64,000 nucleotides of DNA from Candidatus Latescibacterota bacterium. GTDB lineage: Bacteria; Latescibacterota; UBA2968. The DNA is taken from positions 2,624,001 through 2,688,000 of the forward strand of contig OZ242010.1 in assembly GCA_965204745.1 (NCBI GenBank). Direction: 5' to 3'. The notes under the pieces were generated by a model. The model saw nothing but the letters and a program-made list of their open reading frames with translations. It was not told the origin of the DNA and did no database searches. Numbering within the stretch: position 1 is the first letter of the stretch; each line of letters opens with the position of its first letter. Below are positions 30,272 to 34,068 of this stretch, one piece after another. The position numbers and the translations under genes are program-made.

Positions 30272-31045
30272 TTAGAGGTGAGGTGCGGCTGCGCCGAGGG
30301 CGAGGGCGAATTTGCCCGGGTGGTCGAGTGCTGCGCGATCCGGATGTGGCAACCGCGATGTGTCGATATTGCGAAATGTCGGGTATGCGATGAAGTCGCG
30401 GTCTGCGTGCGGTTTGTCTGCGGACAGATAGACCCGGTTGCAGGCGGGTCGGGCGTGCGCGTCAACAGCGGTTAATACGCCATTTTTAACGGCGATGCAA
30501 ACCGAATTTGCAGAATCGCGGTGGACAGCCACTCGTGGGCCGGGTTGCCAGATACCTGCGATTCGTCCGGCGTAAAACAAGGCGAGCGGCGCGGCGATGA
30601 GGTGGATGCGGGTTTGGCCCAAGGCGCGGCACAGGGTCGCGTGTGCGTGGATGATGTCTTTGCGGATGGCGGTCCAAAAAGCCGCACGGCCCGCCGGCAG
30701 GAAGTCGATCTCAAAATTGTCGATTGGCGAGATGAGAGCTTGGGATGCCTCCCACATCATGTGCTCGCGGCGGTCTTCCTCTGATGCGACTTCAAGGGGC
30801 ACTTTTTGGATGTGGTACAAACCATCCGATAGTGCGAATGACAAGGGGCCGAGGGGTTCGGGCAAGCGATCCAGTGCAGCGCGCAATGCTTTGACAAATG
30901 GCGCGGGCACTTCGGTATCAAACGCCCATGAAGCCGATACTCGCCGGGCCGAAAGCCCCTTTAGCCGATACGCATCGTCCGATTTTTCGAGGCAGACCAC
31001 GCGCAGGGAATCGCCCGAAATGTGAATGCCCGTGGCTGTGTTCAT
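30272..31045 (-). CDS. PilM-like (actin-like fold) hypothetical protein
   Basis: N-terminus 'GIHISGDSLRVV', 'HMMWEASQ.L..PID...IDF', C-terminus 'FALALGAA'. Confidence 0.55.
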   Translation of the reverse strand: MNTATGIHISGDSLRVVCLEKSDDAYRLKGLSARRVSASWAFDTEVPAPFVKALRAALDRLPEPLGPLSFALSDGLYHIQKVPLEVASEEDRREHMMWEASQALISPIDNFEIDFLPAGRAAFWTAIRKDIIHAHATLCRALGQTRIHLIAAPLALFYAGRIAGIWQPGPRVAVHRDSANSVCIAVKNGVLTAVDAHARPACNRVYLSADKPHADRDFIAYPTFRNIDTSRLPHPDRAALDHPGKFALALGAAAPHL

Positions 31046-31470
31046 GGCGTGCTCACGTGGGGGCGCAACCGCTCGAGGGTTTTCGCGCCGATCCCCTTGA
31101 CCTTTGTGATGTCCTCAACGCGCTTAAACGCGCCGTTCTGCTCGCGGTATGCCACGATGCGCGCTGCGATTTGAGGCCCAATCCCGGGCAACCGCTCGAG
31201 CTCTTTTGCCGTTGCTCGGTTGAGGTCGATCAATGCCCCGGTTGCTTTTGTTTTCCCTGTGGCAGATGGCACAGCCGCGACGGGCTTTTGGACTTCGAGA
31301 TCGGCGATGCTATCCCGCGCATGCTCTTCGGGAACAGGCACGGCACTTTTTTGCACCTCAAAGTCGGGAACGCGCTCTGGGTCTCGGCTGTCGATATACG
31401 CGATCACAATGCCCACGATGAGAATGCAGCAGAGTAGCAATAGGATGATTTGTTCGTTTCGATTGAACAT
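31042..31470 (-). CDS. comEA: Competence protein ComEA (HhH DNA-binding)
   Basis: N-terminal TM helix; 'IDLNRAT..EL..LPGIGP..A.RIV.YR...G.F...EDI..VKGIG'. Confidence 0.92.
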   Translation of the reverse strand: MFNRNEQIILLLLCCILIVGIVIAYIDSRDPERVPDFEVQKSAVPVPEEHARDSIADLEVQKPVAAVPSATGKTKATGALIDLNRATAKELERLPGIGPQIAARIVAYREQNGAFKRVEDITKVKGIGAKTLERLRPHVSTP

Positions 31471-31515
31471 GGGAGAAGCCGTAAGAGGTAAGAGGTAAGA
31501 TACTCTCTTAAAAGG

Positions 31516-32523
31516 TCAAGGGGTTTTCGGGGTGATTCGATAGAATTTTTCGCCCTCAAAATCTTGGTCATGGCGCAACATGCCCCAGATCGAATGGAGC
31601 AACTTTCGCATCACCGCAACGATAGCCTGCAAAGGTTTCTTGCCGCGGGCGATGAGTTGGTCATAGAAGGCTTTGACATGGCCTTCGTGTCTGATGGCCA
31701 CCCAGGCAGGCATATAGAGGGCATGGCGGAGGTACTTATTCCCGGTTTTCGAGATGCGTCTTTGTGGATTGGCGGTTCCGGATTGTTTGGGTTTGGGATC
31801 CAGGCCTGCATGTGCGACCCACTGGGGCGGTTGCATCTCCTCTGGCAAAAGGGTCAACTCGGCCAAGAGCCGCAAGGCACTCGTTTGCGCGATGCCAGGC
31901 GTCGAGCAGAGGCGTTGGTAGGCACGCTTGAGGGGCTCATCGTGCAAAACGAGATCGAGGGCTTGGCTTTCCAAGTATGCAATCCGGCGTTTGAAGTGTC
32001 GAATATTCACCTGAATATCGCGTGCGATGAGACGTGTGCTGCGGATGTGGTAGCTCTGCGCGTGGTTGCGGCTCTGTTCGCGGATGATCTCCTGCTTGAG
32101 TTGGTCAATGCGTCTGGTGAGGGCTTGCAGTTGAAGCCGTTGCTCGCTCGGCGCTTGCCAAGGCACAAAAGGCATGCGCTCGGCATAGTCGAGGATCAAC
32201 AACGCATCCTTCGCATCCGTCTTCGCCCGTTGCATGCAGGCTTGGGCGTACTTGCTCATCGCTTTGGGATTGACGACCATGACCTTTGTGTGGCGATGCC
32301 GATGCAAGGCCAAGGCCACCCCCAAACTGTAAAGCCCGGTCGCTTCGAGGCACACAGAGACCATGTGCCCGCCCTTCGTGAGCCACTTCAGCAACCGCTT
32401 ATGCGCTTGGGGATCATTGGCAAAGGTCGCTTGCATGACAGCTTGTCCGGGTCTGGACAGGGCAACGGACAACGTGCGGGCACTGACATCAATGCCGGCA
32501 AAAGCGGGGTGAGATTTCGACAT
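31516..32523 (-). CDS. IS110 DEDD recombinase/transposase
   Basis: 'GIDVS', 'CLEATG', 'AKTDAKDA' (DEDD) and C-terminal 'AGLDP..KQSG...ISKTGNKYLRHALY'. Confidence 0.95.
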   Translation of the reverse strand: MSKSHPAFAGIDVSARTLSVALSRPGQAVMQATFANDPQAHKRLLKWLTKGGHMVSVCLEATGLYSLGVALALHRHRHTKVMVVNPKAMSKYAQACMQRAKTDAKDALLILDYAERMPFVPWQAPSEQRLQLQALTRRIDQLKQEIIREQSRNHAQSYHIRSTRLIARDIQVNIRHFKRRIAYLESQALDLVLHDEPLKRAYQRLCSTPGIAQTSALRLLAELTLLPEEMQPPQWVAHAGLDPKPKQSGTANPQRRISKTGNKYLRHALYMPAWVAIRHEGHVKAFYDQLIARGKKPLQAIVAVMRKLLHSIWGMLRHDQDFEGEKFYRITPKTP

Positions 32524-32599
32524 GGGGGCCTCCTGTGATGAGGGGGTTGTAAGGGATCTGGTGCGCGCTCGGGGTCGCGTCCCGACCATTGACGCCAAG

Positions 32600-32770
32600 T
32601 CTACCGGTCTTGTATATGCAGCCTCAAGGGGCTTAGATACTCTTCGGCATAGACCCGGCGGTCGGGGGGCCTATCTTACCTACAAGGTCATCGCCTTCAA
32701 GAGGGGCCGGCCTTCCCCGAGCCGGGCATCAAGATGGCTTATCTCGATACGAGGGCGCAACTCCTAATTA
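32600..32770 (-). ncRNA. Putative bridge RNA of the IS110 element
   Basis: Two internal-loop hairpins containing AGGUAAG (matches target right), AGAGUAUCU (matches donor left) and AUACAAG (donor-right type); ends approximate. Confidence 0.75.
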
Positions 32771-32973
32771 ACCCTTACTTCCAAGATACAAGAGGTAAGA
32801 GGCTAGAGGTAAGAAGTGAGAGGTGAGAAGTGAGAGGCGAGATGGAGGGTTAGCCACAAAAGGCACAAAAGGCACAAAAGGAGTACAGGGCGATAGCCGT
32901 TCAAAGGCACGAGCGGAGTACAACTGGCGATAGCCCGTTCAAAGGCACGAGCGGGCAACTGGCGACAACCCGT

Positions 32974-34068
32974 TCAAAGGCGAGCAGTGTGTAGGGGCGA
33001 TGCCCCTGTGCTTGTTTTTCGCCTTTCGCGTCTTGCGTCTTGCGTCTCACCTCTTCCCGCTTGTTTTTCGCCTTTCGCGTCTTGCGTCTTGCGTCTCACC
33101 TCTTCCCGCTCGATTTCAAAGCCCAAGTCGGCGATCATGCGATGGGTGGCTTCCACATCGAGGCCGCCCGTGGTCAAATACCCTTCCATGAAGAGCGAGT
33201 TGGCCGGGTAGAGCGCGAGGGGTTGGAGGGAGCGGAGATTTTTTTCTCGCCCGCCCGCGACTCGGATTTCGGTCGCTGGGTTGACAAAGCGGAATACGCA
33301 CAAGGCGCGCAGGCAGTCGTGCGGGGTCAGGGCGTTGTGATCGGACAGGGGCGTGCCCGGGATGGGGTGCAGGAAATTGACCGGAATGGAGTTGACGCCC
33401 AAATCGCGCAAGGACACGGCCATGGCGATGATGTCCGCGTGGGTTTCGCCCATGCCAATGATGCCGCCGCTACACGTCTCGAGGCCGGCTTTTTGGATGT
33501 TGTACAGGGTTTCCAGGCGGTCTTCGTACGCGTGCGTAGAGACGATGTTCGGGGTGTGCGCTCGGCTGGTATTGAGGTTGTGGTTGACGCGATCCACACC
33601 GGCGTCTTTGAGGCGCTGCGCGTTTTCTGCGGTGAGCAGGCCCAAGCAACAGCAGATGTCGATATCGACTTCGCGTTTGATTTGGCGCACGGTGTCGGTC
33701 AGGGCGTCCAATTCCCCGTTGGTGGGCGCGCGCCCACTGGTGACGATGCAGTAGCGATACGCGCCGTTTTTATGGGCTTGGCGCGCGGCATCCACGATTT
33801 CACGGGCAGGCCGCAGGGGGTATTTGTCGATAGTTGCGGTGGAGATGGATGATTGCGAGCAATAGGCGCAGTCTTCCGGGCACAAGCCGCTTTTGGCATT
33901 CATCAAAACATGGATGTGGACTTTGCGCCCGAAGTGGTGGCGGCGCACCTGAAAGGCCGCGTGCAACAAGGGCAAAATGTCGCGGTCCGGAGTTTGCAGA
34001 ACCGCGTGCATGTCAGCGGTTGACAGGCCGTCGCCACAGAGGGCTTTGTCGGCATAATCGGTGTACAT
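32974..34068 (-). CDS. bioB: Biotin synthase, with a repeat-derived C-terminal tail
   Basis: 'NAKSGLCPEDCAYCSQS' radical-SAM motif, 'NHNLNTS', 'CSGGIIGMGE', 'SIPVNFL', 'ANSLF..GYLTT'. Confidence 0.95.
   Translation of the reverse strand: MYTDYADKALCGDGLSTADMHAVLQTPDRDILPLLHAAFQVRRHHFGRKVHIHVLMNAKSGLCPEDCAYCSQSSISTATIDKYPLRPAREIVDAARQAHKNGAYRYCIVTSGRAPTNGELDALTDTVRQIKREVDIDICCCLGLLTAENAQRLKDAGVDRVNHNLNTSRAHTPNIVSTHAYEDRLETLYNIQKAGLETCSGGIIGMGETHADIIAMAVSLRDLGVNSIPVNFLHPIPGTPLSDHNALTPHDCLRALCVFRFVNPATEIRVAGGREKNLRSLQPLALYPANSLFMEGYLTTGGLDVEATHRMIADLGFEIEREEVRRKTQDAKGEKQAGRGETQDARRERRKTSTGASPLHTARL
33012..33109. repeat. 49-bp tandem duplication inside the bioB 3' end
   Basis: TTGTTTTTCGCCTTTCGCGTCTTGCGTCTTGCGTCTCACCTCTTCCCGC occurs twice in tandem. 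Confidence 0.9.

Follow-up and report, generated by a model that had tools for sequence, protein, structure and literature searches.

Introduction

According to the published accounts, insertion sequences of the IS110 group have a long non-coding left end and a short right end and are without long terminal inverted repeats (PMC11208160). The bridge RNA of IS621 follows a geometry in which a left target guide (LTG) reads in the sense of the left target half and core and a right target guide (RTG) is complementary to the core and right target half, the second loop being built likewise for the donor and all four guides taking in the core (PMC11208160, PMC11208158). Immediately 3' of the RTG there are handshake guides, which once strands have been exchanged pair with the other DNA at its positions 6-7, and the catalytic residues of the IS621 transposase are D11, E60, D102, D105, and S241 (PMC11208158). 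In the same accounts a promoter is rebuilt upon excision of IS621 (PMC11208160, PMC11208158). Here we describe an element of this group on the minus strand of a 64,000-nt stretch of DNA (hereafter the window; contig OZ242010.1, positions 2,624,001 to 2,688,000 of the forward strand) from a Candidatus Latescibacterota bacterium, the genome of which (G000) is one 5.48-Mb contig.

The element is very probably an active or recently active IS110-family insertion sequence of 1293 bp, the long left end of which encodes a bridge RNA. A preliminary description of the window had proposed an IS621-like recombinase aimed at heptamer tandem repeats of the host. The comparisons given below support this proposal of a bridge RNA predicted to be programmed to such repeats, since the transposase aligns with that of IS621, the guides follow the published geometry, 51 of the 52 copies in the genome sit in heptamer arrays, and relatives in a sister genome without these arrays are differently guided and occupy other sites.

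Transposase and Element Boundaries

The following features define the ends, the gene, and the immediate flanks of the window copy. Array predictions were made with Tandem Repeats Finder (TRF).

31471-31497, minus strand: right flank, a short heptamer array reaching up to the ATG (31470) of the ComEA-like gene (TRF, sequence reading)
31493-31497, minus strand: right target half (RT) TACCT, the first flank bases past the right-end core; together with the core complementary to the RTG AGGUAAG at 7/7 positions
31498-31499, minus strand: core CT of the right junction; CT stands at both junctions in 52 copies
31500-31506, minus strand: left donor half (LD) AGAGTAT, comprising the terminal 7 nt of the right end; together with the core equal in sense to the left donor guide (LDG) AGAGUAUCU at 9/9 positions
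31516-32523, minus strand: IS110-family RNA-guided transposase gene, 335 aa, stop included (Pfam, NCBIfam, and PDB alignments)
32529-32534, minus strand: ribosome-binding site AGGAGG, 5 nt ahead of the ATG (sequence reading), unchanged across 20 aligned left ends
32786-32790, minus strand: right donor half (RD) TGTAT, formed by the initial 5 nt of the left end (copy comparison, guide match)
32791-32792, minus strand: core CT of the left junction and true left boundary; the homology of 52 copies stops here, and an orthologous empty site lacks TGTAT
32793-32842, minus strand: left flank, a heptamer array (TRF period 7, 7.4 copies) with seven in-phase CT-headed units left of the core; of these units, CTTACCT (32793-32799) comes first and serves as the left target half for the window copy

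The assignment to IS110 on the minus strand, made in the preliminary description, was borne out by the intact open reading frame (ORF) of the transposase, which is likewise intact in 51 of the 52 copies. The protein matched the Pfam models DEDD_Tnp_IS110 (PF01548, E 1.2e-24) and Transposase_20 (PF02371, E 4.8e-20) as well as the NCBIfam model NF033542 ("IS110 family RNA-guided transposase") with 213.8 bits against a cut-off of 140, and full-length PDB alignments were obtained with ISCro4 (E 7.6e-40) and IS621 (E 5.8e-36). Its motifs GIDVS, LEATG, KTDAKDA, and RISKTG aligned on the catalytic motifs of IS621 and ISCro4, consistent with a DEDD RuvC-like N-terminal domain followed by a C-terminal Tnp domain with a catalytic serine.

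The genome holds 52 full copies of the element, 30 of which are identical over 1295 nt. In all 52 the common sequence begins with CT-TGTATCTTGG and ends with AAGAGAGTAT-CT, and the bases outside vary. Since this shared sequence reaches position 32792, the left end lies 7 nt beyond the position 32785 given previously, while the other boundary, 31498, was retained; the element thus spans 31498-32792 on the minus strand (1295 nt with both core copies, 1293 bp with one). A CT core is present at both junctions in 52/52 copies, with no further target duplication. The left end has 267 non-coding nt (32524-32790), the right end extends 16 nt after the stop codon (31500-31515), and there are no long terminal inverted repeats.

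The left end opens with two CT-headed heptamers, CTTGTAT followed by CTTGGAA, and GTATCTT is found at both element ends as a 7-nt direct repeat. The choice of the inner boundary had been prompted by a second CT, 7 nt in from the left end, and by this direct repeat. With the corrected boundary the donor junction reads AGAGTAT-CT-TGTAT, which keeps the left half of the donor first reconstructed (AGAGTAT-CT-TGGAA) and replaces its right half. The target had been read as CTTGTAT-CT-TACCT; its right half stood, and its left half gave way to CCCCT, found in 41 of the 45 main-type copies, and to TTACCT in the window copy. The target of the family is CCCCT-CT-T(A/G)CCT and the site of the window copy TTACCT-CT-TACCT.

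Predicted Bridge RNA Guides and Structure

The predicted bridge RNA lies in the left end and consists of the following parts.

32579-32724, minus strand: predicted bridge RNA core with target-binding and donor-binding loop modules (match of covariance model R1, RNAalifold consensus, pair counts)
32700-32706, minus strand: LTG CCCCUCU on the 5' side of the first internal loop; in the sense of CCCCT-CT, matching 5/7 positions at the site of the window copy
32684-32697, minus strand: apical stem-loop of the target-binding module with an AAGG/CCUU stem (RNAalifold, pair counts)
32675-32681, minus strand: RTG AGGUAAG, the complement of CT-TACCT; a G:U wobble allows CT-TGCCT
32672-32674, minus strand: handshake guide AU(A), directly 3' of the RTG and complementary to donor positions 6-7 (AT)
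32635-32643, minus strand: LDG AGAGUAUCU, 9/9 against right end plus core (AGAGTAT-CT)
32620-32633, minus strand: apical stem-loop of the donor-binding module (RNAalifold); one pair is altered on both sides in 9 sequences
32609-32615, minus strand: right donor guide (RDG) AUACAAG, the complement of CT-TGTAT (core plus first 5 nt of the left end) at 7/7 positions

All four RNA segments noticed previously were located where they had been placed, i.e., AGGUAAGAUA at 32672-32681, which spans the RTG and AUA, GGCCCCUCU at 32700-32708, which contains the LTG, AGAGUAUCU at 32635-32643, and AUACAAG at 32609-32615, and all four fit the published strand geometry in both loops once the ends are corrected. 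AUACAAG had been listed without a partner and is now assigned as the RDG. The pairing of AUA with the donor TAT as a handshake guide accounts for the 10-nt match at the right junction that had been reported. Among 15 elements with readable ends, the handshake guide is paired at 2/2 positions in 13, including the relative L074 (GU against donor AC); the corresponding guide of the donor loop, as judged by eye, fits at its first base.

When the sequence of the window copy is folded singly, portions of the guides pair with each other, as is expected of a target made of repeats, whose two halves are to some extent complementary. In the RNAalifold consensus derived from 20 left ends, the guides are found in two internal loops that each lie between a basal stem and an apical stem-loop, so that the guides fall in loops and not in stems. 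Among close relatives the IS621-like structure pairs in 97.9% of cells. In a wider alignment of 16 distinct sequences, which was fitted to the model and is hence biased towards the structure, pairing extends to 94.6% of cells and both sides vary in 14 of 31 pairs, with 33-54% in slid controls. A blastn search with the left end against E. coli genomes, aimed at IS621, gave no match.

Copies and Occupancy of Heptamer Target Sites

The TRF predictions placed arrays at 31481-31500 and 32791-32842 of the window, confirming that the element is flanked by heptamer arrays, and detected 1119 period-7 arrays in the whole genome. The flanks of the other copies are not unrelated sites: beside the core, two or more additional CT-headed heptamers stand in phase in 51 of the 52 copies, and four or more in 36, compared with 2.3% of random CT sites (n = 20000) that have two. 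The 12-bp target site corresponds to two adjacent heptamer units, CTCCCCT and CTTACCT.

Guides and flanks agree copy by copy. Counting Watson-Crick and G:U/G:T pairs, 43 of the 52 copies pair with their own flanks at 14/14 guide positions, and the remaining nine do so at 13/14 (two copies), 12/14 (four), or 11/14 (two, and additionally the copy c602780). When guides were shuffled among copies, the observed sum of 709/728 was compared with 694 ± 2.4 in shuffles, none of 10000 being as good. Ten left-end variants occur in the genome, and their guide letters vary in step with the flanks; the subfamily with UCCCUCU/AGGUGAG occupies TCCCT-CT-CACCT, and the one with CGCCUCU/AAGUAAG occupies CGCCT-CT-TACTT.

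The occupancy of sites in the genome depends on mismatches. Perfect 12-mer sites for the main guides are filled in 20 of 25 cases and sites with one wobble-compatible difference in 18 of 88, whereas the sites with one true mismatch (149) are all empty, and those with two true mismatches (801) are empty in all but 4 cases.

Two unusual copies were also noticed. At L027 (G000:C1:1121591-1124182) two copies stand head-to-tail with only TACCT between them, the second being inserted in the site made by the right junction of the first. The copy c602780 (L059, G000:C1:602780-604074) carries the guides UGCCUCU/AAGUAAG, its flanks TCCCT-CT...CT-CACCT fit the guides of another subfamily perfectly, and its left end appears to be a chimera of two subfamilies. 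The misfit could be due to the RNA of another copy acting in trans or to recombination after insertion.

Relatives and Empty Sites

A protein-based scan identified 25 copies with 76-84% identity in two Latescibacterota chromosomes from metagenome-assembled genomes (G028, OY282377; G007, OZ251458). A covariance model of the two loop modules detected homologs in 13 of 151 genomes of the phylum and none in 17 other genomes of the genus of the window genome. Further relatives in the phylum are found in the genomes G131, G105, G054, G066, G136, G085, and G081. The relatives share the bridge-RNA architecture and the donor ends (AGAGTAT-CT-TGTAT in most) but differ in their target guides.

Matches to the CT-heptamer pattern number 919 in G000, 401 in G007, and 1 in G028, and only the first two genomes, which are rich in CT-heptamer arrays, have guides for heptamer units. 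The elements of G007 carry CGCCUCU and sit in CTCGCCT-CT-CCCGT arrays, and those of G028, with UCC(U/C)CCU and AGAAAAG, occupy CCCC-CT-TTTCT sites that are not part of arrays; the targets of more distant relatives include CT-AACGT and CT-CACGC. In the 15 elements with readable ends, which represent nine right halves, the RTG pairs at 7/7 positions in 11, at 6/7 in three, and at 5/7 in one. Across 12 lineages, 113 of 120 non-core guide positions pair with the element's own flanks, whereas foreign flanks average 5.4/10, and none of 20000 permutations reached the observed sum, although the lineages and genomes are related and their independence is thus overstated in this test. The donor side covaries as well in L074, where the right end is GAAAAC-CT and both the LDG GGAAAACCC and the handshake guide GU are altered to match the donor.

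Three relatives in G105 (L070, L082, L087) have the core AT at the left junction and CT at the right one, with an LTG that ends in AU and an RTG that pairs with CT, and one G105 copy has AT-CT at the left junction. This suggests that in G105 the target and donor cores differ from each other.

An orthologous empty site was available for the copy c5239579, which in G000 stands upstream of a shared start codon. The sequence there runs from ...ccgtctcccct through CT, the element, and CT to tacctctcacgcc..., and in the sister genome G007 the element is missing while the flanking genes are the same. The empty site of G007 reads ...CCGTCTCCCCT-CT-CACCTGCCTTATG, i.e., CCCCT-CT-CACCT with one copy of the core CT and without TGTAT. 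G007 is also without the element at a second locus, c1409186, where it has a heptamer array; in G028 the two flanks of this locus are far apart, and the comparison is hence uninformative. No synteny with the locus of the window copy was detected downstream of bioB in G028 or G007, where repeats only were matched, and this search gave no empty allele of the window copy.

Circle Junction and Proposed Mechanism

A promoter scan of the computed circle junction gave two hexamers.

31514-31519, minus strand: TTGACC, -35-like hexamer in the right end, overlapping the transposase stop codon
32783-32788, minus strand: TATCTT, -10-like hexamer in the left end, for the circle junction only

In the computed junction TTGACC lies 18 nt upstream of TATCTT (17 nt in other subfamilies and in G028), so that by sequence match a promoter would be rebuilt over the junction. 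The same scan gave no comparable promoter for the integrated form, and the G007 relatives (TTGAAC) fell just under its threshold. The circle junction was not seen among the assembled contigs compared, a comparison that covers contigs only and is uninformative for the parts they leave uncovered. One contig skips from 31500 to 32789 (1288 nt, with 20 nt on its shorter side), which fits neither a precise empty site (1293) nor a deletion mediated by the repeat (1286) and is taken to be another heptamer array. As a separate observation, ACTGTAT-CT-TGTATCC, which resembles an uninterrupted IS110 donor junction, occurs in chromosomal DNA within four copies of a conserved stretch (G000:C1:5298620, 5302716, 3554614, and 3552748).

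Concerning transcription, the circular form, and catalysis, we infer the following course by analogy with IS621. The element would form a circle with the junction AGAGTAT-CT-TGTAT, creating a sigma-70-type promoter TTGACC-N17/18-TATCTT that would drive expression of both the transposase and its bridge RNA. The donor-binding loop (AGAGUAUCU and AUACAAG) would hold the circle junction and the target-binding loop (CCCCUCU and AGGUAAG) the 12-bp sequence CCCCT-CT-T(A/G)CCT, i.e., two adjacent units of the CT-rich arrays. The DEDD/Ser recombinase would then exchange strands at the CT core with the AU handshake guide assisting, and insertion would yield no target duplication beyond the core.

Genomic Context and Other Repeats

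In the window the element is bracketed by a BioB-like and a ComEA-like gene and lies upstream of the start codon of the latter, the ATG of which is 27 nt away. Given this position, the role of safe harbours ascribed to the repeats in the preliminary description is conjectural. CT-rich heptamer arrays abut start codons here (31471-31497) and at the gene starting with ATGTCCGACATCC in G000 and G007 (L021, L120); G028 has no array at that gene. Beside the element (window 32855-32981 and 33010-33110) there are an array of a 9-mer (CACAAAAGG, 3 copies), an array of a 35-mer (3.2 copies), and a perfect 49-nt tandem duplication. A second heptamer-array family in G000 (AACTGAC, ACCACTG, ACTACTG; 446 arrays by TRF) exists beside the CT-rich family and is unused by the element, and composite intergenic repeats join both array types with a hairpin resembling repetitive extragenic palindromic (REP) elements. 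The longest open frames over reconstructed empty sites have at least 150 aa at 75% of the sites compared with 92% of random positions; stop-poor CT-rich DNA yields spurious frames.

The sequence CTTGTATCTT, made up of the core and the 8 nt with which the left end begins, is found 156 times in G000 apart from the element itself (e.g., at G000:C1 149716, 536074, and 2158463; an occurrence at 2647679 falls within the genome range of the window), where about 6 are expected. About 100 of these motifs head a REP-like hairpin, GGGCGAGCAC..CATCGCCC, and about 17 stand between conserved GGAGAGATGTTATTCCCC and CCTCGTAGGCACAGGCG. Head plus hairpin is matched 143 times in G000, 193 times in G028, and 57 times in G007, compared with 0-3 times in 18 other genomes of the genus. 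A hairpin variant with a compensatory stem change is found genus-wide and was without the head in 21 of the 22 cases viewed outside the three genomes. One CTTGTATCTT-headed hairpin with the heptamer-like CTCTTACGT ahead of it occurs in G033 (L116, G033:C1:5427560-5427720), a genome without a bridge-RNA match. The three genomes form one subclade by bioB identity (94% and 89%, compared with 79-81% for the rest), and a single origin followed by spread of the REP variant is therefore the economical reading. The head itself could be an inner-register scar, a captured end, or a half-site. No miniature inverted-repeat transposable element with both element ends was found; AGAGAGTATCT occurs 5 times outside the element, and 75 outside GAGTATCT sites are without a shared context. 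Right-end-like sites show no preferred spacing to CTTGTATCTT, and no partner right ends were found.

Alternative Explanations

It is very improbable that the register first proposed is the true one, i.e., that the inner CT (32784-32785) is the core, the element spans 31498-32785, and AGAGTAT-CT-TGGAA and CTTGTAT-CT-TACCT are its donor and target. The GTATCTT direct repeat at both ends, the complementarity of AGGUAAGAUA to the 10-nt TATCTTACCT inside that target, and the 156 occurrences of CTTGTATCTT against the roughly 6 expected from base composition would all suit it, but no loop segment matches CTTGTAT-CT in the sense of an LTG, AUACAAG being its complement as an RDG should be, and AUA is explained as a handshake guide to the donor TAT. 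Moreover, covariation with the LTG, in subfamilies as well as lineages, is seen in the bases to the left of CTTGTAT, the orthologous empty site lacks TGTAT, the junction promoter arises only in the outer register, and only 2 free CTTGTATCTT(A/G)CCT sites are present among the matches listed. We consider it doubtful, as a supplement to the explanation by outer-register insertion and not as its replacement, that both registers are used, the outer CT normally, with recombination or slippage at GTATCTT deleting 1286 bp and leaving a scar LT-CT-TGTAT-CT-RT from which the CTTGTATCTT motifs originated. The excess of these motifs, the abundance of head plus hairpin in just the three genomes with the element family, and the headless state of the genus-wide hairpin in 21 of the 22 cases viewed elsewhere speak for such use, as do the 5 nt left of the motif, which often resemble a left target half (CCCCT 18 times, TCCCC 14 times), and a preprint according to which one matched arm plus core can suffice for recombination. 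The three genomes are, however, one subclade, in which one origin and spread of the REP variant explains the counts without many scars; there is no scar seen at a current-type target, no free CTTGTATCTT(A/G)CCT site with CCCCT on its left, no guide for CT-TYGGG in present copies, and no partner right end with the motifs, AGAGAGTATCT occurring outside the element only the five times mentioned.

Site choice by the protein or by the structure of repeat DNA, with the RNA matches as a by-product of low-complexity sequence, has in its favor that CT-rich repetitive arrays make partial matches common (foreign guides pair at 5.4/10 on average) and that one wobble-rich guide pair scores well on most sites. 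We nevertheless regard it as highly unlikely, since occupancy among similar array sites falls from 80% to 0% with one true mismatch, relatives with a transposase of the same family occupy non-repeat sites quite unlike these and in accord with the loops of their own RNAs, and no shuffle was as good as the observed data in either permutation test. A fossil nature of the copies, with duplication or recombination of repeat-rich DNA in place of transposition as the means of spread, has hardly any probability: the repeat-rich flanks could favor recombination and the left end of c602780 looks chimeric, but 30 copies are identical over their 1295 nt while their flanks differ beyond the 12-bp site, nearly all ORFs are intact, homology stops sharply at the CT cores with no flanking homology past the element between copies, and the element is absent from sister genomes at two orthologous loci. 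Several observations weigh against the explanation preferred here, an IS621-like element guided to heptamer repeats by its bridge RNA. The window copy has two mismatches to the LTG (TTACCT against CCCCU), as have three other copies, two copies have three mismatches to the RTG, the guides of c602780 fit its own flanks at only 11/14 positions, and the RTG of the G007 relatives pairs at only 5/7. On the side of the RNA, the helices are nearly invariant among close relatives, where just 2 pairs have changes on both sides; a 5' stem-loop ahead of the target module is predicted in the window copy and not kept in the consensus of 20 relatives; and an Rfam scan of 31000-33500 gave chance-level matches only (E 1.5 or worse) and no bridge-RNA model. 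The fitted alignment and the relatedness of lineages mentioned above belong here as well. The same preprint states that IS621 can recombine when only the core and a single arm are matched, which by analogy would fit the four copies, including that of the window, with a perfect right and an imperfect left arm.

Implications

As an IS110 element the window element is of an ordinary type, and it is a clear natural case of bridge-RNA programming to short tandem repeats; a limited literature search found no report of an IS110 element aimed at heptamer repeats. It offers an internally controlled natural illustration, with several guide variants in one genome each in matching sites, and natural specificity rules according to which 80% of perfect sites are filled and a single difference is tolerated if it is compatible with wobble pairing but not if it is a true mismatch. 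The 7-nt design of the RTG can be read from the genome without experiment. The short tandem repeats used as a target keep generating new repeat variants by slippage, and the target loop differs among sister genomes in step with the presence of heptamer repeats. For annotation, the corrected boundaries and guide positions are applicable to about 80 copies in three genomes.

If both registers were in use, the inner one would remove the element yet leave CTTGTAT, and the element would write a 7-nt unit into the repeats it targets. The 156 CTTGTATCTT motifs would then be scars or amplified descendants of scars, including the head of the REP lineage in the three element-bearing genomes, and would offer the donor loop more than 100 right-donor half-sites for rearrangements.

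Comparison with Known Systems

The window element is known from its sequence alone, unlike the experimentally studied IS621 of E. coli. The donor of IS621 is ACAGTAT-CT-TGTAT, and that of the window element differs from it at one position. The five IS621 donor positions named in PMC11208158 (A6, T7, T9, T10, T12) agree with the window element. By the description of IS621 in PMC11208160 and PMC11208158, the two elements share a transposase that can be aligned end to end with its catalytic motifs kept, a long left end together with a right end that is very short, two internal loops in which the guides follow the same strand rules (as compared with the published description of the IS621 RNA), a CT core, a handshake AU after the RTG, and a promoter, predicted for the window element, across the circle junction. 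They differ, according to the same accounts, in the target, which is a REP element for IS621 and the junction of two heptamer tandem-repeat units for the window element, in RTG pairing (7 nt compared with 4 in wild-type IS621), in the length of the LTG (7 nt compared with 9), and in the left end before the ATG (267 nt compared with 191 bp). Since target position 7 is T as in the donor, the first handshake base of the window element can, unlike that of IS621, also pair with its own target.

Among solved structures the best match to the transposase was that of ISCro4 (PDB 9t56) over residues 7-326 of 335, with the E-value given above; this system was compared by protein only. A parallel in genomic distribution is provided by ISPpu9 and ISPpu10 of Pseudomonas putida, likewise multi-copy IS110 elements in one class of intergenic host repeat, which in their case is the palindromic REP and not a tandem heptamer array.

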